64,000 bases of DNA, taken from NCBI GenBank assembly GCA_023957835.1, contig JAMLGP010000001.1, positions 115,575 to 179,574 on the forward strand, in the 5' to 3' direction. A model generated the notes under the pieces. The model saw nothing but the letters and a program-made list of their open reading frames with translations. It ran no database searches and was not told the origin of the DNA. The translations under genes were made by a program, and so were the position numbers. The stretch is from Homoserinimonas sp. GTDB taxonomy: Bacteria > Actinomycetota > Actinomycetes > Actinomycetales > Microbacteriaceae. This document shows positions 5,343 to 52,015 of the stretch, one piece after another (the first letter of the stretch is position 1; each line of letters opens with the position of its first letter).

Positions 5343-5744
5343 ATGTCTGAAATGGACTGGGACGGACTTCGGGATGTCGCCAAAGAGGCTCTCAAGCACG
5401 CTTACGTACCGTACTCGAATTTTCCGGTAGGGGTCGCGGCGATGGTTGACGATGGGAGAGTCATTTCGGGCTGCAACGTCGAGAACGCCTCCTACGGCCT
5501 GACCCTGTGTGCAGAGTGCGCCCTGGTTTCAACCCTGCACATGACCGGTGGAGGCAAGCTGGTTGCGTTCACCTGCGTCGACGGGCACGGCAACGCTCTC
5601 ATGCCGTGCGGCAGGTGCCGACAGTTGCTGTTTGAGCACTCTGCTCCTGGGATGCTGCTTGAGACTGTTTCGGGCATCCGCACGATCGATGAAGTCATTC
5701 CCGACGCTTTCGGACCGCGCACTTTGGAGGAATACCGCGCATGA
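5343..5744 (+). CDS. cdd: cytidine deaminase
   Basis: 133 aa with zinc-binding motifs CAECA and PCGRCRQ. Confidence 0.9.
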   Translation: MSEMDWDGLRDVAKEALKHAYVPYSNFPVGVAAMVDDGRVISGCNVENASYGLTLCAECALVSTLHMTGGGKLVAFTCVDGHGNALMPCGRCRQLLFEHSAPGMLLETVSGIRTIDEVIPDAFGPRTLEEYRA

Positions 5745-7078: not shown

Positions 7079-8014
7079 TCACGGGATCCGTTTGAGGGCG
7101 TCGACGACGAGTCCCCAGAACTTCGGATGGTCGAGGTCGGTTGCAGCGTGAGTCGTGCAGTCTTCACCAGCCGGGAAGCGGAAGTCGGCAACGGTCATCC
7201 CGAGGGTGAGAGTGCCGGTTAGCTCGATGTCGAGCGGTACTCTGACCACTTTCATAACTGACGGATCAATCACGAGCGCGACCGCGCACGGGTCGTGTAC
7301 GGGAGGGAACTCGAAACCCTGAGCCTTGCGGTAGCTCTCGGTGAAGAACTCGAGCAGGTCGAGAACGAACTTCGCCGGGACCGAGTCGATTTCGCTGATT
7401 GCCTTTACGACATCCGGAGTCGCGAGTGCCTGGTGGGTCAGGTCGAGGCCGACCATGGTGAGCTTCCATGGCTCATTGAAGACGATGTGCGCGGCTTCTG
7501 GATCGATGACGATGTTGAATTCTGCGGTCGAACTCCAGTTGCCGACGTGGTAGCCGCCGCCCATTAGCACAACTTCCCGAACCCTGGAAACGATCGCCGG
7601 CTCCTTGCGGACCGCGAGGGCGATATTGGTGAGGGCCCCGGTGGGAACGAGAGTGATTTCGCCTGGCTCGCTTTGCATGATCGTGTCAATGATCACGTCC
7701 ACCGCGTGCCGCGGATCGAGTTCGACGGTCGGATCGGGCAGGGTCGGGCCGTCCATTCCGGAGTCGCCGTGTATCGATTCTGCGACTTCGCTCTCACGTA
7801 CCAGCGGCCGATTTGCACCAGCGGCGATCGGCACTCCGGTGATGCCGGCAACCGTGGCTACCGCAAGCGCGTTCCTGGTGACCTTTTCGATGGTCTGGTT
7901 CCCGTGGACTGTCGTGATTGCGGCGAGCTCAATTTCGGGGTTGCCGTGGGCGAGCAGAATGGCGATCGCGTCGTCGTGTCCCGGGTCGCAGTCGAGGATG
8001 ATCTTTCTGGTCAT
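7079..8014 (-). CDS. nucleoside hydrolase (inosine-uridine preferring family)
   Basis: N-terminal DCDPGHDDAIAILLA aspartate cluster; 311 aa. Confidence 0.9.
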   Translation of the reverse strand: MTRKIILDCDPGHDDAIAILLAHGNPEIELAAITTVHGNQTIEKVTRNALAVATVAGITGVPIAAGANRPLVRESEVAESIHGDSGMDGPTLPDPTVELDPRHAVDVIIDTIMQSEPGEITLVPTGALTNIALAVRKEPAIVSRVREVVLMGGGYHVGNWSSTAEFNIVIDPEAAHIVFNEPWKLTMVGLDLTHQALATPDVVKAISEIDSVPAKFVLDLLEFFTESYRKAQGFEFPPVHDPCAVALVIDPSVMKVVRVPLDIELTGTLTLGMTVADFRFPAGEDCTTHAATDLDHPKFWGLVVDALKRIP

Positions 8015-8100
8015 TCTTGAATGCTAATCCAATTCCACAGTCGATTCACCACATATAAAATCAAAGTTCATATTTGAAAACTCTCGAGTAGACTCCAGAT

Positions 8101-21050: not shown

Positions 21051-21126
21051 GGGGCTATGGCGCAGTTGGTAGCGCGTCTCGTTCGCAATGAGAAGGTCAG
21101 GGGTTCGAATCCCCTTAGCTCCACCA
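21051..21126 (+). tRNA. tRNA-Ala (anticodon CGC), encoded CCA
   Basis: A 76-nt cloverleaf was folded by hand: acceptor GGGGCTA/TAGCTCC with the G3:U70 alanine identity pair, anticodon loop TTCGCAA, and T-arm AGGGG-TTCGAAT-CCCCT. Confidence 0.95.
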
Positions 21127-21195: not shown

Positions 21196-21558
21196 TTACA
21201 CCCTGATACTCACCAAGTGTGAGCAGATCCTTGTCTCCAGTAACGATGATGGGTGCCTTCGCCGAATTGCTGTCTCAAGCACAAGATCGTCGTCTGGATC
21301 TCTGGAGACTTCTAGCCTCAGTGGACCGAGTCGGACAAAGTGGATATAGTCACTGAAGAGTGTCAACATTGCCTCCAGATCATCGCCGAAGGTTGCGAAC
21401 TTGACGCTGACTAGTCGCCGAATTTCTTCAATGATTTCCGCGCTCATTGCAACTTGGATACCCACTTCAAGTACGGTTTCGAATACTGCTCTGGGTGCGC
21501 CTCCAAAGACGAGAGCTGAGATCCATACGTTGGAATCGACTACGACTCGTGACTCCAT
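21196..21558 (-). CDS. PIN-domain toxin (VapC-like)
   Basis: MESRVVVDSNVWISALVFGG N-terminus with conserved acidic residues. Its start overlaps the stop of the upstream RHH gene. The local sequence is AT-rich. Confidence 0.75.
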   Translation of the reverse strand: MESRVVVDSNVWISALVFGGAPRAVFETVLEVGIQVAMSAEIIEEIRRLVSVKFATFGDDLEAMLTLFSDYIHFVRLGPLRLEVSRDPDDDLVLETAIRRRHPSSLLETRICSHLVSIRV

Positions 21559-21562
21559 CAGC

Positions 21563-21790
21563 TCAATTGCTGATCGTGTCGTAGACCTGCTGCTCCGAGG
21601 TGTAGCCAAGTTCACGGCCCTTGGCGTTTGCGTTGTCCAGGATCACCTGGAGTGCCTGCTCTGATCTCAATTGCTTTACAACCGCACGTCGAATGTATTC
21701 GCTTCTGGAAGTGAATTCGGTCCGCGCCTGTTTGTCGATGAGTTCAACAAGCTCCTTCGGAAGAGAGATGTTGAAAGTTTGAGATGCCAT
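21563..21790 (-). CDS. ribbon-helix-helix (CopG-like) antitoxin
   Basis: MASQTFNISLPKELVELIDKQARTEFTSRSEYIRRAV is a classic RHH N-terminus. It lies directly upstream of the PIN gene. Confidence 0.7.
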   Translation of the reverse strand: MASQTFNISLPKELVELIDKQARTEFTSRSEYIRRAVVKQLRSEQALQVILDNANAKGRELGYTSEQQVYDTISN

Positions 21791-24922: not shown

Positions 24923-25052
24923 TTACCGCAACTAATTGAAGAGCTCAACTTTAATTGCCTTAAGTTCGACCACGAGTGTGTAGATCCAATTTATCTCCCT
25001 TGCGTCTCGCTATTCTCAGCAATATGTTTACCCAAAATGGTTGGGGGAAATT

Positions 25053-26294
25053 ATGCGACGAGGCTATGCGGTTCTTGATTTCGAAACGACTGGCTTCTCT
25101 CCAAGAAATGGTGATCGTGTGGTGGAGATTGGGGCGGTTTATCTTGGACCTGATCTACGTATAGATGGCGGCATTGAAACACTGGTGAATCCGCTCAGAG
25201 ACGTAGGGCCGACGAGAATTCACGGTATTTCTCCGTCAGATGTCTTTGATGCGCCAACCTTTGAGCAAATAGCACCATCATTGATAGATTTTCTTGACGG
25301 TCGAGTAATTGTTGGCCACAACGTCTCGTTCGACCTTCGATTCCTCGAAGCTGAACTTCAGGCAGCCGGATATAAACCTCCAGAGTTCATTGCAATTGAT
25401 ACGTTGAGTACGGCTCGGTCTCTGCTAGCAACGCGCAATCTGCCATCCTTCAAACTCGTGGACGTCGGACACTTCCTTGGAATTGATGTCGATGAAGTGT
25501 GCGAACAAACGGGTGTCGGATCTCGAGCTGCACACACCGCATTAGGTGATGCACTGGTGACTGCCTTTATAACTTCAAGATTCATCGAGTCATCAAAGGG
25601 AGCCGAGTATTGGGATCTGATGTTAGATCGTGCGGAGTCAGCGGTTTGGCCCGAGCGGGTCCAGATCGAAGTCGATGGGAAGCGCAGGGGGGAAGACTCG
25701 TCGGAAAGACAGGCCCACACGATTTCAGAAGTGGTGTCAGCAATCGGGAAATCAGACCTCACGACCGGTTCGACATCTGAATATACGACTCAGCTTGAAG
25801 AGGCAATGCTCGATCGAATACTTACAGAAGAAGAGATTGATGAGCTCATAGCGTGCGCTACGAATCTCGGCATAGAGGCAGCTACGCTCGGCTCTCTTCA
25901 TCGAGGTCTGTTTGATCGAATTGTTCAGGAGGCCTGGGCAGACGGGAAGCTGACTCTTGAGGAACGCAATGATATTGAGAGAGTTGCCTCTCTACTTGGA
26001 ATTGACAGTGATTCCACTGCCAATGCGCTCTTGAGTAAGTCTGGTCAAGGCAATATTCAGTTTCCCAAAGGCAGCAACATCGTATTGACGGGGGACATGT
26101 CTCGCCCGAGAAGTGAAATTGAGGCAGAGATAAGAAACCTAGGTTTTGTGATCACATCTTCTGTCTCTAGGAAGACATCTCTCGTTATTGCCGCCGACCC
26201 GTACACACTCTCAGGTAAGGGCCGACGAGCAAGGGAACTAGGCGTGCCTGTAGTCACCGAAATCGAGGGACTACAACTTCTCCGAGGTGCTTAG
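25053..26294 (+). CDS. DEDDh 3'-5' exonuclease (DnaQ/epsilon-like) fused to a C-terminal BRCT domain
   Basis: ExoI is AVLDFETTGF, ExoII is GHNVSFDLRFL, and ExoIII is HTALGDALVTA. The C-terminus (NIVLTGDMSRPRSEIEAEIRNLGFVITSSVSRKTSLVIAADPYTLSGKGRRARELGVPVVTE) is BRCT-like. The gene is markedly AT-richer than its flanks. Confidence 0.8.
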   Translation: MRRGYAVLDFETTGFSPRNGDRVVEIGAVYLGPDLRIDGGIETLVNPLRDVGPTRIHGISPSDVFDAPTFEQIAPSLIDFLDGRVIVGHNVSFDLRFLEAELQAAGYKPPEFIAIDTLSTARSLLATRNLPSFKLVDVGHFLGIDVDEVCEQTGVGSRAAHTALGDALVTAFITSRFIESSKGAEYWDLMLDRAESAVWPERVQIEVDGKRRGEDSSERQAHTISEVVSAIGKSDLTTGSTSEYTTQLEEAMLDRILTEEEIDELIACATNLGIEAATLGSLHRGLFDRIVQEAWADGKLTLEERNDIERVASLLGIDSDSTANALLSKSGQGNIQFPKGSNIVLTGDMSRPRSEIEAEIRNLGFVITSSVSRKTSLVIAADPYTLSGKGRRARELGVPVVTEIEGLQLLRGA

Positions 26295-39543: not shown

Positions 39544-40545
39544 ATGGCTGGCATTCTGGGGACCGGGGTTCAGGAGGGGCTGCTGCTCAAGCCGGTCAAG
39601 TACCAGTGGGCAATGGATTTGTATGACCAGGCGGTGGCAAACACCTGGTTCCCGAACGAAATCCAGCTCGACCAGGACATCGCAGACTTCAAACGGATGA
39701 CCGATGAGGAGCGCCATGCGATCACCTTCCTCATGAGCTACTTCAATCCGAACGAGCTGCTCGTCAACAAGGCGCTCGCGTTCGGGGTCTACCCGTACCT
39801 CAACGCGGCAGAGGCGCACCTCTACCTCGCCAAGCAAATGTGGGAGGAAGCCAACCACTGCATGAGCTTCGAGTACGTGCTCGAGACCTTCCCGATCGAT
39901 CGCGAGGAGGCCTACAACTCCCACGTCGACGTACCCTCGATGGCGCGCAAGGAGGAGTTCCAGGTCAAATACATCCGCCGGATGACCGAGGACACTCTCG
40001 ATATCACCACGACCGAGGGCAAGCAGGATTTCGTTCGCAATCTCGTCGCCTACAACATCATCCTCGAGGGGATCTGGTTCTACTCGGGCTTCATGGTCGC
40101 CCTGAGCTTCAGGCAGCGCAACCTCCTGCGCAACTTCGGTTCGCTAATGGACTGGATCATTCGCGACGAGAGCCTGCACCTCAAGTTCGGCATCAACCTC
40201 ATCCTGACCGTGCTCGATGAGAACCCGGAACTGCAAACCCCCGAGTTCGCCTCCGAGATCAAGCAGATGATTCTGGATGCGGTGGAGATGGAAGAGGCCT
40301 ACAACGAGGACTTGCTCCCCGGCGGCATCCTCGGCCTCAACGCGAGCTACATCAACCAGTACGTCAAGTACCTGGCCGACCGCCGCCTCGAAGAACTCGG
40401 CTTCGACGCCGAATACAAGGTCTCCAACCCCGCCAAGTGGATGGCCACCGCCAACGACACCTACGAACTCGTCAACTTCTTCGAGTCGACCAACACCTCC
40501 TACGAGGCCAACGCAAAGGCGGTTACCGGGACGAAGAAGGAGTAA
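39544..40545 (+). CDS. nrdB: ribonucleotide reductase small subunit, class Ic-like (Phe at the radical-Tyr position)
   Basis: Metal ligands are NELLV (Glu where class Ia has Asp), EEANH, ILEGIWFY and RDESLH. The residue four positions after the first His is Phe (HCMSF). Confidence 0.85.
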   Translation: MAGILGTGVQEGLLLKPVKYQWAMDLYDQAVANTWFPNEIQLDQDIADFKRMTDEERHAITFLMSYFNPNELLVNKALAFGVYPYLNAAEAHLYLAKQMWEEANHCMSFEYVLETFPIDREEAYNSHVDVPSMARKEEFQVKYIRRMTEDTLDITTTEGKQDFVRNLVAYNIILEGIWFYSGFMVALSFRQRNLLRNFGSLMDWIIRDESLHLKFGINLILTVLDENPELQTPEFASEIKQMILDAVEMEEAYNEDLLPGGILGLNASYINQYVKYLADRRLEELGFDAEYKVSNPAKWMATANDTYELVNFFESTNTSYEANAKAVTGTKKE

Positions 40546-40620
40546 GGCGGGACGTTTAGACCTCAGCGGGAGTGCGTCGTTTGCCTACCAAGGGGACTTT
40601 CGCGACGCTACCCGCATCGT

Positions 40621-40715
40621 GTACTTTAGTTTCGTACGGGATTCCCAATAAGGTTCTGGCCGAAAGGTTGCAGAACTGACTTCTCGCCCTCCTTCGGGAG
40701 GGCATTCCCGTTTTT
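40621..40715 (+). ncRNA. predicted tracrRNA of the type II-C system (5' end uncertain)
   Basis: 40636..40649 ACGGGATTCCCAAT pairs over 14 bp with the first 14 nt of the minus-strand repeat GTTGGGAATCCCGT. 40627..40633 TTTAGTT pairs with repeat nt 26-32 AACTAGA. A TAAGG nexus-like junction follows, then hairpin GTTCTG-GCCGAAAGGTTG-CAGAAC (40653..40676), then GCCCTCC-TTCG-GGAGGGC (40686..40703) and TTTTT (40711..40715). The cas9 ATG is 38 nt downstream. Confidence 0.7.
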
Positions 40716-40752
40716 ATTGCTGAATATCGGTGGTATGGGATAAGAATTGCTC

Positions 40753-43700
40753 ATGTCCACATTCATCGTTGGAACTGACGTTGGTCAGAACTCAGTTGGT
40801 CTCGCGACTATCGAAGTTGATGAGAATAACTTCCCAGTTTCTATTCCAAATCTTCTGGTCGTATTGCACGACAGCGGTAAAGATGGCATGGCTTCGGGGC
40901 AGACTGCGTCTGTTAGTCGAAAAGCCTCCGGCGGCGTGGCACGCAGAGTGCGAAGACTGTTGAGAAATCGTCGCCGACGCGCACTGAAGTTGGAACAGGG
41001 TCTCGCAGAACGTGGCTACCCAGTGCCGCCTAGAGATAGCCCGACGACCTATGGGCCGTGGGAGGCAAGAAGCGAACTCCTGGCGGGCCCGATCGAATCC
41101 GACCAGAGACGGCGGGAGATGTTATCACTCGCAATCAGGCACATGTCCAATCATCGTGGGTGGGCTAACGCCTGGGTTTCGCTTGAGTCCTATTGGAACG
41201 AAGAAGAACCGAGTAAGGAGTTTCAAACCGCGGTCGAAGTTGCTCGTGAGAAGGCGGGTTTAGGTGGTGAATTCCTGAGCGAACCAAGATTTCAAGCTGA
41301 CTTGGCGAGGTATGGCTGGTCAAATGAGTTCCAGCTTCGCCCAAGGAAGAACGCAGACCCAGACCGCCCGCATCTACTCGGAACTCAGCGGCGGGTCGAT
41401 GTGGTGCGCGAATGGCGAGAGATTTGCAGTGTTCAGGGTCTACCCAGAGAAGAGTTTGAGTTCTTCGCAAAACGTGCATTTGCCCAGGAGAAGCCAAAGG
41501 TTCCAATTGAGAGAGTTGGGAACGACTGGTTGCCAGGTTTTGAGAATAAGAAGCGTGCCTCTGTCTCTTCACTTGAACATCAAGAGTTCAAGATAAGACA
41601 AGTGGTCGCGAATCTTGCGGTTCGACCATCGCCTCGATCTCGCGAGCGCGAGCGCCTGACGGCCGAGCAACAGAATTTAATCGTCGATCACTTGATGAGC
41701 GTCACTTCGAAGGATGAGCAGCCCAGGTGGCAGGATGTAGCTGAATCGTTTCTTGGGATTGAGCCGAACCTGCTAGTCCATTTCGAGCCCGAGGAACAGC
41801 TCGGCGGACTGGCTCCAATCAACAACTCTGTCCTTCAGGTGCATTCGCTCCCTGCCAAGCATCCGGTTCGTCAGTGGTGGATCGAAGCCGCGCCTGCATC
41901 TCGGCGGTCATTCTTGCTGAACTTTGCCGATCCGGCAGAGACCGAGATTCCGGAGGAAATCGCTGCTCAACTTGAGTCGATTGTCATGGATCTAAATGAG
42001 AAGGAGCTCGATTCCTTCTTGAAACTGAAGTTTGCATCCGGCCGTTCAGCTCACTCGCTCGAAGCACTCGAGATGCTAAATCGCGAGATCGAGTTAAGTG
42101 GCGACCCATATGTCACAGTGAGAAATCGATTGTTCGGGGAGGCAACGAACAAGGGGCCCACTGCTGAGAATCTCGACGCTCAATCGGATCACCCAACGCT
42201 TCAGCGGATTATCCCAATTATCAGGCGATATTTACTTGGGTTGGAGCGCCAGGGGAAGAAGCCTTCGCGAGTTGTGATTGAGCACGTGAGAGATGCCTTT
42301 CTTGGATTCCAAGCCAAACAGGAGGCATCCCTGGAAATGATTCGGAATCGTAAGTCACGTGAAGTCGCGAAGCAGGACATTGCAAACTCCGGATACATCA
42401 CAAACGCAGAAAACGCCGACGACGGAATGATCCGCAAGTTCCAGGCGTTTAGGAGGCAGAACAGCGAGTGCCTCTATTGCGGCGCGACCCCCGGTTGGAC
42501 CGGGATGGAGATGGATCACATCGTTCCTCGAGCTTCCGGCGGGAACTCCACCCGTGCGAATCTGGTTGCCGTATGCCGCGATTGCAACGCGGCCAAAGGG
42601 AAGCTTCCATTTGCGCAATTTGCGGCTTCAGGAAAGCGTCCGGGGGTGAGCCTGAGTGACGCCATCGAGCGAGTTCGTAGCTATTTGCAATTTGAACTCG
42701 ATCGAAAGCAACTTGAACGGCTCAAGAAGGAAACCATCCGAAGGCTCAAGCAAACTGAAGAAGATGAACCAATCGATGAGCGCGCGCTGGCAAGCACAGC
42801 CTATGCCGCGGTAGAGGTTCGACGAAGGGTCATGGAGAGCCTTGAATTGCCAAGCCAGGACGTGCCGGTTTATTCCGGAAAGATAGTGAGCGCCGCACGA
42901 CATTCAAGCGGTGTCGACAAGATCATCGCGCTTCGCGAAGGGATCGATGTCAAGACCCGATTCGATCGCAGGCACCATGCAATCGATGCAGCAGTCGTCG
43001 CGATGATGAACCCTTCGGTGGCAAGGACACTTGCCGAGCGGGATGACTTGCGAAATGCCGAGCGCGCGCTAGGCGAGCAAACAGGTTGGCGCGAGTACGA
43101 AGGTTCGACGCCTGCTGCGCGCGAGAAGTTCTCGCAATGGAAAGCATCGATGAAGCGCCTCTCAGAATTGATTCGCGAAAAGGTTGAGGCGGACGAGGTG
43201 GTTGTCATGCAGCCAGTTCGCTACTCTGCGCACCACGCGGCTCTGCACCTCGACGGCAAGTCCCCTCACGTTCGCAAACGTCTTGGGGAGGCCTGGACTG
43301 GTGAAGAGCGCGCTCGAATCGTGGACGACAAGGTTTACGAAGCCGTATCCGGTACTACTCGCCCAAGCGACAGCCAGCCCGAGGACGCTACTAGATCGAT
43401 CGTGTTACCGAATGGGCAGAAGCTCGAGGCAAGCGGTGACATCTACTTGTTCCCGTCTTTAGCTGCTAGGCAGCCTTTACCAAACGCGGCTTCCGCAGAA
43501 CTTGGGCCGACTATGCATCATGTACGGCTATTTCGGTGGCCCGATAAGAAGGATGGTTGGAAGGCAGGGATAATCAGGGTTTGGGCTTCGGATCTGTACG
43601 ACCTTGAAGGTGGTGTAGGTGCGGATGTATTGACCGCGCCACTATTGGCGTCGTCGCGTGCGGTGCGTCGAGCGAATGGCACTCGTGACGGAGTGCGAAA

Positions 43701-44121
43701 TGCGATCCACGAAGGAGTAGCAGAGCACGTGGGGACCTTCGTCATTGGAGACGAAATCATAATCGACCCAAGAGAGTGGGTGGGCAGCAGCGAACCAGCG
43801 AGATTTCTGGGTGAGTTTCCAGAATCACATTGGAAGCTACTTGGTGCGATGAGTGACTTGCAGTTCACTCTTGGGCCAATTCACCTCTCAAGAGAAGGAA
43901 TTCTTGAGCGAGACGATGATCCCACAGCATCCAAACGAGTGAAGGTCTCTCCACTAGCAAAAAAAGTGATCGGGGATCGAATGCTGATTACAGCTTCAAC
44001 TCTGTGGAGAACAAGGGCAACTCGTGTGGTTAGGCGAACCGCCCTTGGTTCGGAACGGCTCAGTGGTACTTCCGGGATGCCATCTTCTTGGACCCCTTAT
44101 GAGGCGGTTTACGGAAGCTAA
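40753..44121 (+). CDS. cas9: type II-C Cas9 endonuclease (1122 aa)
   Basis: RuvC-I is IVGTDVGQNSVGLA. The Arg-rich bridge helix is ARRVRRLLRNRRRRALKL. RuvC-II is VVIEHVRD. HNH is YCGATPGWTGMEMDHIVPRASGGNSTRANLVAVCRDCNAAKG. RuvC-III is RHHAIDAAVVAM. Confidence 0.95.
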   Translation: MSTFIVGTDVGQNSVGLATIEVDENNFPVSIPNLLVVLHDSGKDGMASGQTASVSRKASGGVARRVRRLLRNRRRRALKLEQGLAERGYPVPPRDSPTTYGPWEARSELLAGPIESDQRRREMLSLAIRHMSNHRGWANAWVSLESYWNEEEPSKEFQTAVEVAREKAGLGGEFLSEPRFQADLARYGWSNEFQLRPRKNADPDRPHLLGTQRRVDVVREWREICSVQGLPREEFEFFAKRAFAQEKPKVPIERVGNDWLPGFENKKRASVSSLEHQEFKIRQVVANLAVRPSPRSRERERLTAEQQNLIVDHLMSVTSKDEQPRWQDVAESFLGIEPNLLVHFEPEEQLGGLAPINNSVLQVHSLPAKHPVRQWWIEAAPASRRSFLLNFADPAETEIPEEIAAQLESIVMDLNEKELDSFLKLKFASGRSAHSLEALEMLNREIELSGDPYVTVRNRLFGEATNKGPTAENLDAQSDHPTLQRIIPIIRRYLLGLERQGKKPSRVVIEHVRDAFLGFQAKQEASLEMIRNRKSREVAKQDIANSGYITNAENADDGMIRKFQAFRRQNSECLYCGATPGWTGMEMDHIVPRASGGNSTRANLVAVCRDCNAAKGKLPFAQFAASGKRPGVSLSDAIERVRSYLQFELDRKQLERLKKETIRRLKQTEEDEPIDERALASTAYAAVEVRRRVMESLELPSQDVPVYSGKIVSAARHSSGVDKIIALREGIDVKTRFDRRHHAIDAAVVAMMNPSVARTLAERDDLRNAERALGEQTGWREYEGSTPAAREKFSQWKASMKRLSELIREKVEADEVVVMQPVRYSAHHAALHLDGKSPHVRKRLGEAWTGEERARIVDDKVYEAVSGTTRPSDSQPEDATRSIVLPNGQKLEASGDIYLFPSLAARQPLPNAASAELGPTMHHVRLFRWPDKKDGWKAGIIRVWASDLYDLEGGVGADVLTAPLLASSRAVRRANGTRDGVRNAIHEGVAEHVGTFVIGDEIIIDPREWVGSSEPARFLGEFPESHWKLLGAMSDLQFTLGPIHLSREGILERDDDPTASKRVKVSPLAKKVIGDRMLITASTLWRTRATRVVRRTALGSERLSGTSGMPSSWTPYEAVYGS

Positions 44122-44127
44122 ATGTGA

Positions 44128-45042
44128 ATGACGGCCGGGCGTCAAGTTATCGATGCAACCCGCCTCGACGGGGCGATAACTTCCGTGCCTGGCGGGGTTG
44201 CAGTCGGCGGCACTCGCGTGCCACTTGAGGACGTCGCCGTCCTTTTGATGGGGGGCACGACCACGATTAGTGGTGGCGCATTGACGAAGCTTGCTCGATA
44301 CCAGGTGATCATTCTCAATTGCGATTGGCGGGGAGTTCCCGATCTGGTCGCCTACGGTTGGAGCGACAACTCGAGAATCGCCAGCAGGCATCGAGCTCAA
44401 GCTGAACTGAGTGAACCAAGACGCAAGAGCGCCTGGCAAGCAATTGTCAAAGCCAAGATTCTTGGGCAGCAGCGGAATCTTGAGTTTCTTGGGATTAGAG
44501 AGGCCGTGCGACTCGCAAACATCCGCAAGGAAGTCAGGTCCGGGGATCCGGCCAATTGCGAGGCCCAGGCTGCCAGGGTTTATTGGGAATGTCTGTTCGA
44601 GGGCACTGAATTTTCTCGGACACCTGGCGGGGAAGATCGCCTAAATTCCCTCTTGAACTACGGCTATGCGGTGGCTCGCGGTTTTGTAATTCAGGCGGTT
44701 TGTATCGCGGGCCTTTGGCCGAGTTACGGGCTCTGGCACCGGAATCGTTCGAACACTTTTGTCCTAGCCGACGACCTCATCGAGCCGTTTCGCCCGGCCG
44801 TTGACTTCTGCGTTGCGACCATGGCGCCGGAGCTGACTCTCGATGACAGAGACGCTAAACGAAGACTGGTAGCTGTGACCTCCGAAGCGATGGACAGAAC
44901 GGGAGCATCAGTCGCAACTTCCATGCGGGACTTCGCCAGCCAACTGGCTATGTATGTGGAGGGGGACAAGGAGAACTTATCGCCTCCGTCCTGGCGCCCG
45001 TCCACGGGAGATCAACTCTTCGATGAGGGCGAGGATGGCTGA
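44128..45042 (+). CDS. cas1: CRISPR-associated endonuclease Cas1
   Basis: NSLLNYGYAVARGFV...GLWHRNRSNTFVLADDLIEPFRPAVD core; 304 aa. It starts 7 nt after cas9. Confidence 0.93.
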   Translation: MTAGRQVIDATRLDGAITSVPGGVAVGGTRVPLEDVAVLLMGGTTTISGGALTKLARYQVIILNCDWRGVPDLVAYGWSDNSRIASRHRAQAELSEPRRKSAWQAIVKAKILGQQRNLEFLGIREAVRLANIRKEVRSGDPANCEAQAARVYWECLFEGTEFSRTPGGEDRLNSLLNYGYAVARGFVIQAVCIAGLWPSYGLWHRNRSNTFVLADDLIEPFRPAVDFCVATMAPELTLDDRDAKRRLVAVTSEAMDRTGASVATSMRDFASQLAMYVEGDKENLSPPSWRPSTGDQLFDEGEDG

Positions 45043-45352
45043 TCCTGTGTGGCTCTTGGTCATGTTCGACCTGCCTGTGCTCGAAAAAGAGCAGAGGCGT
45101 GAAGCGAATGCCTACAGAAAGCTCCTATTGAACCGAGGGTTCTCGAGGGTTCAGCTTTCGGTCTACTGCAGATACATGATTAACGCGACAGCGACGCTCC
45201 CGATAATTGAATACCTTAAGTCGACTGTTCCAGATGAGGGCTACGTCCGAATACTTCAGCTATCGGATCGTCAGTGGTCCAAGGGTTGGCACCTCTATGG
45301 AGACAAGTACATTCCTCCGGAGGAGGCACCTGAGCAACTTTTGCTCTTCTAG
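45035..45352 (+). CDS. cas2: CRISPR-associated endoribonuclease Cas2
   Basis: MADPVWLLVMFDLPV...VQLSVY; 105 aa. It overlaps the cas1 stop by 8 nt. Confidence 0.9.
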   Translation: MADPVWLLVMFDLPVLEKEQRREANAYRKLLLNRGFSRVQLSVYCRYMINATATLPIIEYLKSTVPDEGYVRILQLSDRQWSKGWHLYGDKYIPPEEAPEQLLLF

Positions 45353-45409
45353 CCAACCGTTTGGTCGACCTGAGGTACGCGCGACAGCAAATTTCACTCG
45401 CTCGAAAGA

Positions 45410-45444
45410 GGCCGGATCCCTTGATTTCCAAGGGATCCAAGGCC
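45410..45444. terminator. strong hairpin between cas2 and the array (candidate bidirectional terminator)
   Basis: GGCC-GGATCCCTTG-atttc-CAAGGGATCC-aa-GGCC: a perfect 10-bp core stem plus an outer 4 bp. No long U-tract on either side. Confidence 0.5.
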
Positions 45445-45449
45445 TCTCT

Positions 45450-46317
45450 CAAGTCTAGTTGGGAGAGATGAACGGGATTCCCAACACCTGAGAGCCTGGT
45501 ACACGGCAGTCCACAAGTCTAGTTGGGAGAGATGAACGGGATTCCCAACCGGCGTGATCGGGGCAATCGTTGGCGTCCAAGTCTAGTTGGGAGAGATGAA
45601 CGGGATTCCCAACCGACGACTTTGGTTAGGTCAGACTTGAACAAGTCTAGTTGGGAGAGATGAACGGGATTCCCAACATAAGAAATTTCAAGAAATGTTC
45701 GGAACCAAGTCTAGTTGGGAGAGATGAACGGGATTCCCAACCGGCTCCGCGCTGGGCGGTGGCCGATGACAAGTCTAGTTGGGAGAGATGAACGGGATTC
45801 CCAACAACGAGTCGAGCGTGGTGGCGTTCGGGACAAGTCTAGTTGGGAGAGATGAACGGGATTCCCAACAGTGATCGGATCTGATCGACGTACACGACAA
45901 GTCTAGTTGGGAGAGATGAACGGGATTCCCAACTTACATATCCACCGGAGACCGCGACGAGCAAGTCTAGTTGGGAGAGATGAACGGGATTCCCAACTGT
46001 AGGAGATCGTTACCGTCTTGATCGGCAAGTCTAGTTGGGAGAGATGAACGGGATTCCCAACTTTGCGTACCACGCGGCAACGCCCACCTCAAGTCTAGTT
46101 GGGAGAGATGAACGGGATTCCCAACATCCTTCAAACCTGATGCTGGACGTTGCCAAGTCTAGTTGGGAGAGATGAACGGGATTCCCAACCTTGGAGGTCG
46201 TAGCAGACGTCCGCTCTCAAGTCTAGTTGGGAGAGATGAACGGGATTCCCAACCTACGTCGGACCCAACGGCGGCGGCAAGCAAGTCTAGTTGGGAGAGA
46301 TGAACGGGATTCCCAAC
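45450..46317 (-). CRISPR. CRISPR array: 14 identical 36-nt repeats, 13 spacers of exactly 28 nt
   Basis: Plus-strand repeat is CAAGTCTAGTTGGGAGAGATGAACGGGATTCCCAAC; the crRNA-sense minus strand is GTTGGGAATCCCGTTCATCTCTCCCAACTAGACTTG. Repeat starts were checked at 45450 + 64n for n=0..13. The strand was assigned from the GTTG... 5' end and the tracrRNA anti-repeat. Confidence 0.97.
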
Positions 46318-46520
46318 ATATCTGGGTCTCAAACGACGATTGGCGGTTGGAAGTGAGAGACTTTCGTTGTCCCGAAGGGACCGCGCTTCTTCTGCCTCTG
46401 CGCAGAAGAAGCGCGACAGTCGGCAGCCAGGTTAGACATAACTTCTGGGTCTTGAAGTGACCTTCAGAAAGTCTTTATTCAGGCCTACAGCAGGCCTTGA
46501 TTTCGGCCTACAATTGAGGC

Positions 46521-46805
46521 GTGCAAACTTTACCGATCTCGAAGGTCAAGGACAAACTCAATGAGTTTGTCGACGCAGTCAGCCTCACGCGCGAGCAAGT
46601 GACGATTACCAAGAATGGTTCACCGGCCGCTGTTCTAATTGGCGCCGATGAGTGGGAGTCTCTTCAGGAGACTCTCTTTTGGCTGTCCCAGCCTGGAATC
46701 CTCAGTGACATAGAGTCTGCAAGAAAGGAGCTTGCTGAGGGCAAGACCTTCAGCAAGGAACAAGTCCTCTCCGAGCTCGGACTCGTCCTGCGCTCCGAAA
46801 AGTGA
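46521..46805 (+). CDS. Phd/YefM family antitoxin
   Basis: LPISKVKDKLNEFVDAV...VTITKNGSPAAVLIGADEWESLQETL. It overlaps the toxin gene by 4 nt. Confidence 0.85.
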   Translation: MQTLPISKVKDKLNEFVDAVSLTREQVTITKNGSPAAVLIGADEWESLQETLFWLSQPGILSDIESARKELAEGKTFSKEQVLSELGLVLRSEK

Positions 46806-47086
46806 CAGAGTACCAAGACGTCAAGCCGTTTCAGGTGGAGTTCTCGAGCTCGGCCCAACGAGACCTGAAGAATATTCCGCCTCGGATTGTCCCTGCGATT
46901 GTCGAATTCGTCTACGGTGATCTGTCCCGCAACCTCAGGAGAGTCGGCAAGCCCCTGCAAAGAGAACTTGAAGGGCTTTGGGGAGCGCGGCGTGGTCCTT
47001 ACCGAATCATTTATGAGATTCGTGAGGATCGAATGATTGTCCTGGTAGTGCGGATTGCAGCCCGAGCGGATGCCTACCGGCTTTAA
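46802..47086 (+). CDS. RelE/ParE family toxin
   Basis: 94 aa. FSSSAQRDLKNIP...GPYRIIYEIREDRMIVLVVRIAARADAYR is typical of RelE/ParE. Confidence 0.8.
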   Translation: MTEYQDVKPFQVEFSSSAQRDLKNIPPRIVPAIVEFVYGDLSRNLRRVGKPLQRELEGLWGARRGPYRIIYEIREDRMIVLVVRIAARADAYRL

Positions 47087-47128
47087 TTGATCTAAACGGA
47101 ACTGGCGGGTGCGGCGGATCAGGCCGGC

Positions 47129-49111
47129 TTGATTGGAAGACTCATGATTGCAATCGTTTGGAACATTGCCCTGATAACCGCCGCGACGATCGTCTTCATG
47201 TTCGTCCTGGGCAGCTTCGCGAACCGGGTGCTCGGGGTGCGGATCGGCACGATTCGGCTGGTGCTGGCCGGCATTCTCGGGCTAGGGGCCGAGATCGGCT
47301 TCGAGTCGCAGTTTGTCTGGGACAAGATCGAATACAGTGCTGCACTGCTGCCGCTGCAGGTCGGAGTCGTGTTCTTCGTCGCGATCGCCTTCCTGGTGAT
47401 AGCCGAAATCCTGGTGCCAGCCGGAACCGTGCTCAGGCCGGATCAGGTTTGGCGAGGGGTTGCAGCATGGTATCGACGGGCTCGCCGCTATTCCCAGATT
47501 TCGCGGATTGCGCTGCGAAACAAGCTGATCCCCTTCCGGCCGAATACCGACCCTTCAAGTGAGGGCAGCGCCGAACGCACCCGGCAGGCCAAGGCGCTCA
47601 GGAGTGCGCTTGAATCTGCCGGTGGCGCATTCATCAAGCTCGGCCAATTGCTCTCGACTCGAAGCGACATCCTCCCACCGGAATATCTGGCCGAACTCGG
47701 CAAGCTGCGCGAACAGGTGACTCCGGCGCTGTGGAGCGAAGTTCAGAAGTCGATCGAGAAAGAGCTCGGCGGCCATATTTCGGACCACTTCAGCAATTTC
47801 GAAGAGGAGCCGATCGCGGCAGCTTCAATCGGACAGGTTCACCGCGCAACCCTAAAGGACGGCCGAAAGGTTGCCGTCAAAGTTCAGCGGCCCGGAATCG
47901 TGCCGCTGGTCGAGCGCGACATTGATATAACGCTAAGACTTGCGACTCGGCTCGATAACACCGCCCAGTGGGCTCGCGACTTCGGACTGCTCGGCCTGGC
48001 CAGAGGCTTCGTGGACAGCCTGCGTTCGGAACTGGATTTTCGGGTCGAGACGGCGAACATGGCGGCGATGGCCGCCGCCCAGTCGAAGCACCCTCGCGAG
48101 ACTCAGCTCGGCATCCCGAAGCATTACCCGGAGTACTGCACCGACAAGATCCTCACCATGGAACTGATCGAAGGCGACACTCTGAGCGATTCGAGTGCCC
48201 TCGAACGCAGAACCAAAGCGGTTCGAAATCGGCTCGCCAACCTGCTGCTGCGCTCGGCCCTCACCCAGATAATCGACGACGGAGTGTTCCACGCCGACCT
48301 GCACCCCGGAAACATCATCCTCAAGTCCAACAACGAAATGGTACTGCTCGACTTCGGTTCGGTTGGTCGACTCGATTCGCAGTTGCGCTCCCAAATCGGA
48401 GAAGTCCTCATCGCCTTCTACCGTGCAGACGCTGCGTCATTCACGGATGCCCTGCTCGGCTTCGTCGACCTGCCCGAAGACATAGACGAGCATTCTCTGC
48501 GCCGCCAGATCGGAGTCTTTCTCGCCACGCGTCTGGGTCCGGGGGCGGTACTGGATGTGACCGTGGTCACCGAAATGATCCAGCTGCTAAGTCGCAACCA
48601 GATCGCCGTTCCCGCAGAACTCGGGACCGCTTTCCGCGCCGTAGCGACAGTAGAAGGCACGCTCCGGCACCTGGAACCTGGCTTCGAATTCCTACCGGCC
48701 GCCACCGCATACGCGCAGGAGAGAATCGCCTCCGGCTTCACTCCGCGCGCGGTCTACACGAGCATCAAGGATGAGCTGGTTTCGGTGCTTCCGCTGCTGC
48801 GCAGAATCCCGGGTCGGGTCGATAAGATCACCGGGAATCTTGCCGACGGGCGACTGAACGTAAACATTCGACTGTTTGCCGATCATCGAGATCGAACCCT
48901 GCTTCGCAGTGTCGTCAATCTGATCGCGCTCACGGTGCTCGCGAGCGCCTTTAGCGTCGTCGCCGCCATGCTTCTGGTGAGCAGCAACGGTCCCCAGATC
49001 ACTCCAACCCTCACCCTGTTCCAGATTTTCGGCTACCTGCTTGTGATAATCGCCGGAGTGCTGACGCTTAGAGTGCTGTTCGACGTGTTTAGAGCCAGAC
49101 GCAGGGAGTAG
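47129..49111 (+). CDS. ABC1/UbiB-family atypical kinase with N- and C-terminal TM segments
   Basis: FIKLGQLLSTRSDILPPEYLAEL, PIAAASIGQVHRA and HADLHPGNI motifs; 660 aa. Confidence 0.88.
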   Translation: MIGRLMIAIVWNIALITAATIVFMFVLGSFANRVLGVRIGTIRLVLAGILGLGAEIGFESQFVWDKIEYSAALLPLQVGVVFFVAIAFLVIAEILVPAGTVLRPDQVWRGVAAWYRRARRYSQISRIALRNKLIPFRPNTDPSSEGSAERTRQAKALRSALESAGGAFIKLGQLLSTRSDILPPEYLAELGKLREQVTPALWSEVQKSIEKELGGHISDHFSNFEEEPIAAASIGQVHRATLKDGRKVAVKVQRPGIVPLVERDIDITLRLATRLDNTAQWARDFGLLGLARGFVDSLRSELDFRVETANMAAMAAAQSKHPRETQLGIPKHYPEYCTDKILTMELIEGDTLSDSSALERRTKAVRNRLANLLLRSALTQIIDDGVFHADLHPGNIILKSNNEMVLLDFGSVGRLDSQLRSQIGEVLIAFYRADAASFTDALLGFVDLPEDIDEHSLRRQIGVFLATRLGPGAVLDVTVVTEMIQLLSRNQIAVPAELGTAFRAVATVEGTLRHLEPGFEFLPAATAYAQERIASGFTPRAVYTSIKDELVSVLPLLRRIPGRVDKITGNLADGRLNVNIRLFADHRDRTLLRSVVNLIALTVLASAFSVVAAMLLVSSNGPQITPTLTLFQIFGYLLVIIAGVLTLRVLFDVFRARRRE

Positions 49112-49332
49112 ACCGGTGACGATTCACCCGAGACCTCCAAAGTCGCGCGGATTTAGGCGACGAATTCTCGGATCGTGACCTTTTCGATAGTGAATGGTTG
49201 CTGAGACCACCGAATCGGCTCGAATTGCAGGAGTAGGCTTCCGATACCGGCAGGGCCAGAGACTTTCGATGCACGTGTCCAAGCCCCCGACTCGCCGGAC
49301 CAAATTCACTGTGGAAGAGAAGAAGGATTCAA

Positions 49333-50235
49333 ATGCGCACGAAGTTGACGCTGCCGGTCGTGGCAATCGCGGCCGTTGCAGGGCTCATGCTCACCGGCTG
49401 TGTGGATAACAGCACGCCGACTACGCCGGGTGGCAGTTCTAGTGACACTCCGTCTGTCGGAGTAGACGAGGCGGCAGTCGCACTGCTGCCAGACAACATC
49501 AAGCAGGCGGGCAAGCTAATCATCGGTATCGACCCGACCTACCCGCCGAACGAGTCCAAGGACGACGCAGGCAACCCAGTCGGCTGGGATGTTGAACTCG
49601 CAAATGCGATGGCCGCGAAGCTCGGACTCACCCCCGAATACCAGATTGCGAGCTTTGACAAGATCATTCCGAGCATCAAGGGTGGCACCTTCGATGTTGG
49701 AGTGTCATCCTTCACCGACAACGTCGAGCGCGAGGCTTCGGTTGACTTCGTGAACTACTTCGTAGCCGGAGTCATGTGGGCGCAACCGATCGATGGAAAC
49801 GTCGACCCGGCAAACGCCTGCGGACTGACCGTATCCGTTCAGGCCACCACCTATGAGGAGACCGACGAACTGCCAGCCGCATCCCAGGCCTGCACCGACG
49901 CTGGCAAGGCGCCGATCACGATCCTGAAGTTCGACAAGCAGGATGACGCAACCCTCGCCATCACCGACGGTCGTGCCGACGCGATGAGCGCAGACACCCC
50001 GATCACGCTGTACGCGATCTCGAAGCTCTCCGACAAGATCAAGGCCGCCGGCGAGTCGTTCGAGGACGCTCCTTACGGAATCGCAGTCGCAAAGGGTTCG
50101 CCGCTCGTGAAGGCGATCCAGGCGGCTCTGCAGTCGATGGTCGACGACGGAAGCTACAAGGCAATCCTCGACAAGTGGGGAGTAGCAGACGGCGGAATCT
50201 CGACAATCACGATCAACGCCGCAGGCAATAGCTGA
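49333..50235 (+). CDS. amino-acid ABC transporter substrate-binding lipoprotein
   Basis: Lipobox LMLTGC and a type 3 periplasmic-binding-fold pattern (GIDPTYPPNE...FDKIIPSIKGGTFDVGVSS). Confidence 0.85.
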   Translation: MRTKLTLPVVAIAAVAGLMLTGCVDNSTPTTPGGSSSDTPSVGVDEAAVALLPDNIKQAGKLIIGIDPTYPPNESKDDAGNPVGWDVELANAMAAKLGLTPEYQIASFDKIIPSIKGGTFDVGVSSFTDNVEREASVDFVNYFVAGVMWAQPIDGNVDPANACGLTVSVQATTYEETDELPAASQACTDAGKAPITILKFDKQDDATLAITDGRADAMSADTPITLYAISKLSDKIKAAGESFEDAPYGIAVAKGSPLVKAIQAALQSMVDDGSYKAILDKWGVADGGISTITINAAGNS

Positions 50236-50237
50236 TC

Positions 50238-51236
50238 GTGAAATCGTCAAAGGACGAGCTGTCGGCGGCAGGTAATCCCCTGCCGCCGACAGCAGACGAA
50301 CCTGAGCCGATCAAAGCGATTCGGCTCAAGCACCCTGTGCGGATAATCTTCGCGATCATTCTGATAGTGGCGCTCGCCATCTTCCTGATCGACGCCGCTC
50401 AGCGCCCCGCCTATAGCTGGGGAAATTTCAGCAAATACATTTTTGACAAGCGAATCTCTCAGGCCGCAGGGTTCACCCTTCTGCTCACGATCTACTCAAT
50501 GGCGATTGCGATCGTGCTCGGAATCACCATAGCGGTAATGCGGCTCTCCGACAACCCGGTGGTTAAGGGGGTCGCCTGGCTCTACCTCTGGATATTCCGC
50601 GGCACTCCGGTGTATGTGCAGCTTGTGTTCTGGGGACTGATTACAACCATCTACCAGACGATCGACATCGGGATCCCGTTCACTCAGCCCTGGATTTCGA
50701 TCGAGTCCAAAGGCTTTATCGACGTCTTCTGGCTCTCGGTAATCGGACTCGCTCTCAATGAAGCTGCCTATATGGCGGAGATCGTGCGGGCCGGCATCCT
50801 CTCGGTAGATAAAGGGCAGGATGAGGCGGCAACCGCTCTGGGCATGTCCTGGATGCAGACCATGCGCAGGGTAATCATCCCGCAGGCCATGCGGATCATC
50901 ATCCCGCCGACCGGCAACGAGGTCATCTCAATGCTAAAGACGACTTCGCTTGTAACCGCGGTGCCGTTCAGCTTCGACCTCTACGGTCGGGCACGGGATA
51001 TTTCGGTCGAGATCTACGACCCGATTCCGCTGCTGCTCGTTGCCTCCGCCTGGTATCTGGCGTTCACTTCGGTGCTCATGGTTGGGCAGTACTTCCTCGA
51101 GAAGCGGTTCTCACGCGGGGTCGGTCAGGCCAGAACAGACAAGAAGGGCGGAATTGACCCAGACCAGACCGGGGCAATTCAGGTCGCTACCGGCGCGGTT
51201 CGCGTCGACGCACACGGTTCGGAGCACACGAAATGA
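50238..51236 (+). CDS. amino-acid ABC transporter permease
   Basis: EAA-type loop ([23 protein letters not shown]); His/Glu/Gln/Arg family. Confidence 0.88.
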
Positions 51237-52015
51237 CCGCCGTTCAGGACAACAATGTCCCAATGGTCCAGGCCGACCGGGTTTCCAAGAACTTCGGCTC
51301 CAATCGAGTGCTCAAGAGCATCTCACTCACCGTAAAACGCGGAGAAGTGCTGTGCCTCGTCGGACCGAGCGGATCCGGCAAGTCAACGTTCCTGCGCTGC
51401 ATCAACCACCTCGAGCGGGTCGACGCAGGTCGTCTCAAGGTAGACGGCGTTCTCGTCGGATACGAGGAGCGCGGTGAGAAGCTCTACGAACTCCACCCGA
51501 AGGAGGCAGCTAGGCAGCGGCGGGACATTGGCATGGTGTTCCAGCGCTTCAATCTCTTTCCGCACATGACGGCCCTCGAAAACATCGTCGAGGCCCCGAT
51601 TCGGGTCAAAGGAATGAAGAAGGCGGATGCCGAAACCCGTGCCAGGGAACTGCTCGCTCGAGTAGGGCTCGCCAACAAGGCGGACTCCTACCCTGCGCAC
51701 CTTTCCGGCGGCCAGCAGCAGCGGGTTGCGATCGCTCGAGCACTTGCAATGGATCCGAAGCTCATGCTCTTCGACGAACCGACCTCTGCGCTCGATCCCG
51801 AACTCGTCGGGGAAGTGCTCGACGTCATGAAGAAGCTCGCCGAGTCTGGGATGACCATGATCGTGGTTACGCACGAAATGGGGTTTGCGCGCGAAGTCGC
51901 CGACTCGCTCGTCTTCATGGACGGGGGAGTCGTCGTCGAATCCGGCGACCCGGTCGAGGTGCTGACGAATCCGCAACACAAGCGGACTCAGGCGTTCCTG
52001 TCCAAAGTCCTCTAG
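51233..52015 (+). CDS. amino-acid ABC transporter ATP-binding protein
   Basis: Walker [10 protein letters not shown], signature [15 protein letters not shown], Walker [13 protein letters not shown]. Confidence 0.93.

Follow-up and report, generated by a model that had tools for sequence, protein, structure and literature searches.

A 64,000-nt stretch of DNA of Homoserinimonas sp. (GenBank contig JAMLGP010000001.1, positions 115,575–179,574), called the window here, very probably carries a complete type II-C immunity locus of the CRISPR-Cas9 kind (short palindromic repeats that are clustered and regularly interspaced, and the CRISPR-associated nuclease Cas9). In this reading Cas9 is guided by a trans-activating CRISPR RNA (tracrRNA) together with CRISPR RNAs (crRNAs) from the minus strand, and the block of CRISPR and toxin-antitoxin genes was gained horizontally from a donor of lower GC content. 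Between 40.6 and 46.3 kb, the + strand of the window contains, in this order, the tracrRNA gene, cas9, cas1, cas2 and the repeat-spacer array, which are followed by a toxin-antitoxin pair of the Phd/YefM-ParE/RelE type. In the proposed mechanism, a tracrRNA of ~80 nt would be made from the + strand and the crRNAs from the minus strand, the first 14 nt of the crRNA repeat (GUUGGGAAUCCCGU) would pair with the anti-repeat of the tracrRNA, and Cas9 carrying this dual RNA would cut matching invader DNA beside a protospacer adjacent motif (PAM) through its RuvC and HNH sites, while Cas1-Cas2 would insert new spacers of 28 nt. All the defining features of type II and type II-C systems that can be checked in silico were found in the locus, and cleavage and adaptation are predicted activities only.

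The cas genes and the CRISPR array

The stop codon of the ribonucleotide reductase gene nrdB is at 40545, and a gap of 207 nt separates it from the ATG of cas9 at 40753. The cas9 gene (40753–44121, + strand) encodes a protein of 1122 aa of the actinobacterial type II-C clade. It scored 152.9 bits against TIGR01865 of NCBIfam (cut-off 100) and contains the Pfam domains Cas9_a, RuvC_III, HNH, Cas9_Topo and Cas9_C. The residues D9, E510, D588/H589, N612, H742 and D745 aligned with D17, E505, D581/H582, N606, H736 and D739 of AnaCas9, so that the split RuvC-like domain with an inserted HNH domain and its catalytic residues, which define the type II effector, were seen in both profiles and alignment. 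The best matches in the PDB were AnaCas9 (4OGC, E 3.9e-142), AceCas9 (8D2K, 3.9e-109) and CdCas9 (6JOO, 4.1e-95), and SaCas9 of type II-A matched with E ~1e-6 only, over the nuclease core. The ranking of these matches places the predicted protein with the Cas9s of type II-C rather than those of II-A or II-B.

The cas1 gene (44128–45042, + strand; 304 aa) is of the type II or NMENI subtype, with 217.6 bits against TIGR03639 cas1_NMENI (cut-off 120) and E 1.9e-76 against Cas1_II of PADLOC. The cas2 gene (45035–45352, + strand) encodes 105 aa from the ATG at 45035, with GAGGGCGAGG upstream, and scored 60.2 bits against TIGR01573 (cut-off 24.5) and E 6.5e-33 against PADLOC Cas2_II. The ATG at 45035 is probably the true start, and the longer open reading frame (ORF) from 44954 would not be used; in the relatives Cas2 is 105–109 aa long, and an 8-nt overlap of cas2 with the end of cas1, the arrangement of the window, is found in most of them. 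Both csn2 and cas4 were scored as absent because the remaining ORFs of at least 60 aa in the block 40546–47100 (40277–40651 and 46227–46460) matched no Pfam or other family; the neighbouring genes are nrdB, the Phd/ParE pair and ubiB. The adaptation module thus consists of cas1 and cas2 only, which is the gene content of type II-C, csn2 being the mark of II-A and cas4 that of II-B. The initial annotation, made from the sequence without database searches, had called the locus a complete type II-C system with intact RuvC and HNH motifs, and both statements were borne out by the curated profiles and by the alignment with AnaCas9.

Seven related loci (L002, L003, L005, L007, L013, L014 and L015) were fetched from metagenomes through Cas9 homologues of 54–72% identity. 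In L002, L005, L007 and L015 a TAGACA box is found 6–7 nt before the ATG of cas9, and the window has TAAGAA(T) at 40741–40747. This box suggests a leaderless cas9 mRNA. The TAGAC core of the box is also present in the repeat and, in two of the relatives, upstream of the tracrRNA.

The array (45450–46317, assigned to the minus strand) contains 14 repeats and 13 spacers. By script count the 36-mer CAAGTCTAGTTGGGAGAGATGAACGGGATTCCCAAC occurs 14 times without any difference on the + strand, at a constant spacing of 64 nt, which agrees with the identical repeats reported at first, and all 13 spacers are unique and exactly 28 nt long. Such regularity cannot be due to chance. The crRNA repeat on the minus strand reads GUUGGGAAUCCCGUUCAUCUCUCCCAACUAGACUUG. 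Among the related loci, the array of L007 (13171–17691) counts ~70 repeats; of its spacers, 63 are 28 nt and 5 are 29 nt long, and degenerate copies of the repeat were noticed in the 200 nt that follow at its cas-distal end. These degenerate copies suggest that new spacers would enter at the end next to cas2. In L003 (~5450–5490) and L005 (~7980–8015) a single repeat follows cas2 and is followed by unrelated genes, which may represent a reduced array or a collapse in short-read assembly.

The tracrRNA, the strand of the array and crRNA biogenesis

The best match to the repeat outside the array in the 64-kb window was found at 40636–40648, between nrdB and cas9, where 13 nt are identical to the repeat in its + strand orientation; no other sequence complementary to the repeat was found in the window. 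This match lies in a predicted tracrRNA gene of ~80 nt (40634–40715, + strand; putative ends) with the sequence 5'-ACGGGAUUCCCAAUAAGGUUCUGGCCGAAAGGUUGCAGAACUGACUUCUCGCCCUCCUUCGGGAGGGCAUUCCCGUUUUU. The RNA would be composed of the anti-repeat (40636–40649), AA, stem-loop 1 (40652–40677), an 8-nt linker GACUUCUC, a GC-rich stem-loop 2 or terminator (40686–40703) and a tail ending in a U-run. The anti-repeat was predicted to form a 14-bp duplex with the minus-strand repeat, over its first 14 nt; in the relatives the duplex covers 16 nt. A candidate -10 box, TACTTT (40622–40627, + strand), is located 8 nt upstream of the anti-repeat and may belong to the promoter of the tracrRNA. TANNNT is the -10 pattern of actinobacteria, and it was found 7–10 nt upstream of the anti-repeat in 8 of 8 loci (TACTTT, TAGGTT, TAAGGT, TATGTT, TAGACT twice, TAGGAT and TATTCT).

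The same element was present upstream of cas9 in 7/7 independent related loci, 120–190 nt before the gene. A profile of the 8 tracrRNAs (nhmmer) detected the true loci with E values of 1e-18 to 1e-21 and otherwise only repeats. In the alignment of the 8 loci, 98.8% of the cells of stem-loop 1 were paired and compensatory changes on both sides were seen at 5 of its 10 pairs; none of 500 shuffles reached its covariation score, and pairing fell to 36–53% in slid controls. Two of the pairs are G.U in nearly all sequences, which is possible only in RNA of the + strand. In addition, L003 carries the same GGG to GGA change in both repeat and anti-repeat. A search of 40.0–47.3 kb against Rfam gave no family match except a chance snoRNA hit (E 0.86). 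By this comparative evidence the tracrRNA candidate, which the initial annotation had placed upstream of cas9, is real, and the predicted RNA has the anti-repeat, the structured scaffold and the terminator expected of a type II tracrRNA. A 14-mer of stem-loop 1, GGCCGAAAGGTTGC (40658–40671), recurs exactly in the ubiB-like gene at 47861–47874; as ~0.15 chance matches are expected per 9 kb, this is probably a coincidence.

As the anti-repeat lies on the + strand, the RNA made from it is complementary to a transcript of the minus strand of the array. Because of this orientation and of the G.U pairs of the scaffold that are specific to the + strand, the crRNAs almost certainly come from the minus strand, opposite in direction to the cas genes. 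The order cas9-cas1-cas2-array given at first is right as a physical order and does not hold as a transcriptional one, the array being predicted antisense. An array transcribed from the + strand with the cas operon, using another tracrRNA or none, is the alternative. For it speak the position of the array, which follows cas2 directly and on the same strand, the co-orientation that default CRISPR tools assume (PMC3737331), and the palindrome of the repeat, which gives a + strand GUUGGGA that could form 7 bp with UCCCAAU of the tracrRNA. These 7 bp are to be set against the 14–16 bp formed by the minus-strand repeat, and the window offers nothing else for a + strand transcript to pair with. Moreover, a strong hairpin stands between cas2 and the array in related loci, and the variants CCCAAC, CCCAGC and CCCGAC of the 3' arm of the repeat (L002, L005 and L013) keep their pairing, through G.U, in minus-strand RNA only. 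Transcription from the + strand is thus most unlikely.

The hairpin of the window (45410–45444) is 5 nt from the cas2-proximal repeat; its predicted folding energy is -32.5 kcal/mol when read from the + strand and -37.8 kcal/mol when read from the minus strand. L002, L003, L005, L007 and L013 have hairpins of different sequence at the same place, 1–5 nt away from the first repeat. The probable role of the hairpin, judged from position and fold, is termination of the cas transcripts and of the crRNA transcripts that converge with them, which would stop crRNA transcripts from running antisense into cas2. It may alternatively be a leader-like signal for spacer integration.

The minus-strand repeat ends with CUAGACUUG; its hexamer TAGACT is separated by 2 nt from the 3' end. 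All repeat variants of the family retain the box, in the form TAGACT, TAGGCT or TAAACT, and a consensus scan did not call it. Promoters carried by the repeats, and independence of RNase III, are known in Neisseria meningitidis and Campylobacter jejuni (PMC5965381). By analogy with N. meningitidis, it is possible, though somewhat short of an even chance, that the -10-like box in each repeat starts a crRNA; a start 6–8 nt downstream of the box would give guides of ~22–24 nt. Short crRNAs would then begin inside the spacers and RNase III would be dispensable.

Furthermore, the tail that follows the terminator of the tracrRNA (UCCCGU and the U-run; 40704–40715) was found to be complementary to the 5' half of its own anti-repeat (ACGGGA, 40636–40641). 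In 6 of the 8 loci (the window, L002, L003, L005, L007 and L015) this pairing gives the minimum-energy fold the shape of a closed three-way junction before the U-run; it is missing from L013 and L014. The tail duplex has -8.7 to -12.0 kcal/mol as compared with ~-3.6 to -5.8 for shuffled tails, and one compensatory change was seen, L003 being altered to match on both sides. It is possible that the tail just belongs to the terminator. It could also be imagined, as a very doubtful proposal, that the tracrRNA of the Micrococcales II-C subgroup is self-gated, such that crRNA pairing opens the tail helix and termination or stability, perhaps with read-through into cas9 37 nt downstream, responds to crRNA abundance. 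If true, self-gating and repeat-borne promoters together would amount to a feedback at the RNA level that is not described for II-C systems.

Composition, synteny and origin of the block

The GC content of the block 40546–47100 is 0.546 as compared with 0.608 elsewhere in the window, the lowest value among 575 sliding windows of 6.5 kb. The GC content at third codon positions (GC3) is 0.56–0.63 for cas9, cas1, cas2, phd and parE, as against 0.83 for nrdA, 0.88 for nrdB, 0.73 for the ubiB-like gene and 0.74–0.76 for the genes downstream of it. The AT-richness noted in the initial annotation was thus upheld by both measures. Two Logan contigs carry the region 40056–45485 at 99.98% identity, and the ubiB-like protein has a 100% identical counterpart in a Homoserinimonas sp. 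metagenome-assembled genome (Microbacteriaceae).

For the synteny of the site, a metagenome scan with NrdB gave 80 loci. The relatives that keep the backbone have a major facilitator superfamily (MFS) gene on the minus strand, nrdA and nrdB, and then the SBP_bac_3, permease and ATPase genes that correspond to 49333–52015 of the window, where an operon for an amino-acid ATP-binding cassette (ABC) transporter begins at 49333. The gap between nrdB and the transporter, which contains no cas gene, is 186 bp in L016 (NrdB 93% identical), 130 bp in both L020 and L058, 222 bp in L046, 398 bp in L018, 754 bp in L056, 823 bp in L035 and 928 bp in L030. Homology with L016 resumes at ~49230–49320. The DNA that the window has in excess of these relatives, by this comparison, is the segment from 40546 to ~49230 (~8.7 kb) with the CRISPR-Cas genes, the toxin-antitoxin pair and ubiB; it was counted with ubiB because the relatives have nrdB and then the transporter. 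The ABC1/UbiB-family kinase gene (47144–49111, + strand; 655 aa; PF03109, 224.5 bits) was absent between nrdB and the transporter operon in L016, L018, L020, L058, L046 and others. Its orthologues (65–67% identity) in other Microbacteriaceae adjoin MMPL or epimerase genes and never nrdB. The island lies downstream of nrdB, and ubiB is not its native right flank. The synteny check proposed at first, for nrdB directly adjoining ubiB in relatives, failed in every relative examined because such adjacency never existed, and not because the island is ancestral. As the composition of ubiB is host-like, its arrival may have been separate from that of the CRISPR and toxin-antitoxin block.

Three other lines were followed and given up. 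UbiB could not be used to reach an empty site, as no nrdB lies upstream of it in the relatives, and the scan with NrdB gave the empty sites instead. Pairwise alignments suggested a tracrRNA remnant in the nrdB-transporter spacer of L016 and at 49150–49240 of the window, but the profile of 8 tracrRNAs found only true tracrRNAs and repeats at E values up to 10. A defence hotspot downstream of nrdB was also dismissed, since the other genes carried there by L017, L019, L021 and L085 are of native composition and represent ordinary rearrangement.

The difference in composition from the flanks and the absence of the locus in the nearest relatives support the horizontal acquisition of the CRISPR-Cas and toxin-antitoxin genes into the gap between nrdB and the ABC transporter, as the initial annotation had proposed. 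The related cassettes lie beside a pyridine-nucleotide oxidoreductase, an AMP-binding enzyme, an ArsR/cation-efflux pair, fpg/RNase III, a lipoate ligase, a glycerate kinase, and a tRNA with a glycosyltransferase, one context per locus. In L015 (4560–4640) a tRNA gene with the anticodon CAU is directly upstream of the promoter region of the tracrRNA, which hints that the cassette of that genome was integrated beside a tRNA gene.

Several points weigh against the reading of a horizontally gained locus with a minus-strand array. No integrase or transposase and no convincing flanking direct or inverted repeat was found at the segment, the matches of 13–14 nt being at chance level, and nrdB of the nearest relative is only ~84% identical in DNA and 93% in protein, so the timing and number of insertions are uncertain. 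The lack of a mobility gene or target-site duplication, the fact that the closest relatives are different species by these nrdB values, and the frequent loss of CRISPR-Cas loci would also suit a locus that was ancestral at the site and deleted in the relatives. For such an ancestral locus, the GC3 of cas9, cas1, cas2, phd and parE is far below the 0.73–0.88 of their neighbours, which indicates genes not adapted to the genome; at least 8 relatives of several lineages show direct or near-direct adjacency of nrdB and the transporter, the profile search detects at the empty sites neither a remnant of the tracrRNA nor one of the repeat, and Cas9 relatives of 57–72% identity lie in unrelated contexts. 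Ancestry with deletion is thus unlikely. As regards the RNAs, their ends, strand and promoters are predictions from sequence, the anti-repeat duplex of the window is short (14 bp), and a generic sigma-70 consensus scan flagged none of the proposed tracrRNA, repeat and pre-cas9 promoters. The repeat has an internal inverted repeat of 7 bp (GTTGGGA...TCCCAAC) and both its strands start alike; because of this palindrome the strand call rests on the tracrRNA and not on the repeat. A degenerate terminal repeat that could mark polarity was seen on neither side of the array, where alignment scores were no better than those of shuffles.

As regards activity, no protospacer of the 13 spacers was found in the window, in 50,697 phage genomes or in plasmids, and 20-nt seed scans of IMG/VR with 8 of the 13 spacers gave no credible match. 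The PAM could not be derived because no protospacer was found for any spacer. The single IMG/VR match was rejected as chance (20/28 nt on a contig of 35% GC, diverging after the seed). The plasmid matches reached only E 0.4 or worse, on a GC-rich spacer. A pooled query with the spacers of L007, L013 and L015 showed that the L007 spacer ACCGAGTGGATGATGGGCTGGCCCGAAG matches the DNA methylase genes of many mycobacteriophages at 26/28 positions, which fits a defence against actinobacterial mobile elements. The lack of any detectable target, and the presence of just 13 spacers, could also mean that the locus is an inactive relic no longer capable of interference or adaptation. Against decay speak the full length of all three ORFs, their intact catalytic residues, the identity of the 14 repeats, and the retained pairing and scaffold of the tracrRNA; spacers with no protospacer are usual in environmental Actinomycetota, whose phages are unsampled. 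A relic is accordingly considered improbable, and a complete immunity locus is the preferred reading.

The rest of the acquired segment contains an antitoxin gene of the Phd/YefM family (46521–46805, + strand; 94 aa), which scored 60.1 bits against TIGR01552 and 62.8 bits against PF02604 and has a cas-like GC3 of 0.63. It is overlapped by 4 nt by the gene of a toxin of the ParE/RelE superfamily (46802–47086, + strand; 94 aa; GC3 0.58), which is the layout of a type II toxin-antitoxin pair. The toxin matched ParE_toxin of Pfam (PF05016) with 41.3 bits and reached only 20.4 bits against RelE_StbE of NCBIfam (cut-off 27.9), so that of the YefM/RelE pair named originally the antitoxin half is retained and the toxin is better described by ParE. 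An inverted repeat search found a perfect 14-bp hairpin between the array and this pair (46382–46415), with no T-run after it on either strand. Elsewhere in the window, the gene at 25041–26294 (+ strand) encodes an exonuclease of the RNase_T (DEDDh) family, 417 aa long and also carrying a BRCT domain, which matched the PADLOC candidate defence protein PDC-S48 (E 3.4e-115). The gene is situated in the kilobase of the window that has the lowest GC content (0.50). Another patch of low GC content (0.52) contains tRNA-Ala(CGC) at 21051–21126 followed by a PIN-domain gene (21196–21615, minus strand), and may be another small acquired element beside a tRNA.

Comparison with known type II-C systems

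The locus adds an ortholog of 1122 aa to the actinobacterial II-C clade of Cas9, with 72% identity to its nearest database relative. A Cas9 scan of the genome collection returned only an unrelated planctomycete HNH match and no named close relatives. The guide RNA prediction is in a usable form, with the crRNA repeat starting 5'-GUUGGGAAUCCCGU, the tracrRNA as given above, and a single guide RNA (sgRNA) composed of the guide, GUUGGGAAUCCCGU, a GAAA loop and the tracrRNA from ACGGGAUUCCCAAU on. Anti-repeats had not been found in silico for Acidothermus cellulolyticus, Corynebacterium diphtheriae and Bifidobacterium (PMC3737331), and the short anti-repeat of 14–16 nt seen here fits this earlier failure in the clade; comparative alignment now locates the anti-repeats of the Micrococcales subgroup, which were formerly undetectable in silico since they are short. 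This is an ordinary system, an uncharacterised locus of a well-known kind and a routine horizontally gained defence island, which neither opens nor settles an outstanding question.

The closest counterparts are the loci of the related set, which share with the window the gene order, a near-identical repeat, the position and fold of the tracrRNA, the hairpin between cas2 and the repeats and the spacers of 28 nt. They differ from it in their flanking genes, which are different in each locus, and some of the contigs have one repeat only. The window Cas9 belongs to a Micrococcales subgroup with 50–72% identity to P0002–P0020 and 54% to Gulosibacter sp. 10, and its identity to Cas9s of the Actinomyces/Corynebacterium type is only ~30–33% (~33% to AnaCas9). 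It aligns over its whole length with AnaCas9 of Actinomyces naeslundii (4OGC/4OGE), AceCas9 of A. cellulolyticus (8D2K, 6WBR) and CdCas9 of C. diphtheriae (6JOO), with the same domains and catalytic residues, and the operon of this group also consists of cas9-cas1-cas2 only. The sgRNA of AceCas9 is ordered as repeat:anti-repeat duplex, AA, stem-loop 1, linker and stem-loop 2 (PMC7733487). The tracrRNA of the window has the same order of scaffold elements, with a longer stem-loop 1 (26 nt as against 17 nt). AceCas9 uses the PAM NNNCC, and the spacers of the window are 28 nt long.

The II-C systems of N. meningitidis and C. jejuni (Zhang et al, 2013; Dugar et al, 2013; PMC5965381, PMC3737331) have in common with the window the cas9-cas1-cas2 set and repeats of 36 nt. 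The antisense polarity of the array, which was shown experimentally in these two (PMC3737331), is predicted for the window as well, together with a hexamer near the 3' end of each repeat that could act as a -10 box and start crRNAs within the spacers. Their Cas9 proteins are distant from that of the window (E ~1e-12, over the HNH/RuvC core only), and the window differs from them in having the tracrRNA upstream of cas9 in the same orientation and in its predicted box TAGACT, which is without an extended -10 motif. As predicted from sequence, then, the window locus is closest to the AnaCas9/AceCas9/CdCas9 group in its protein and guide layout, whereas its array polarity, and perhaps the way in which its crRNAs arise, is most like that of Neisseria and Campylobacter.

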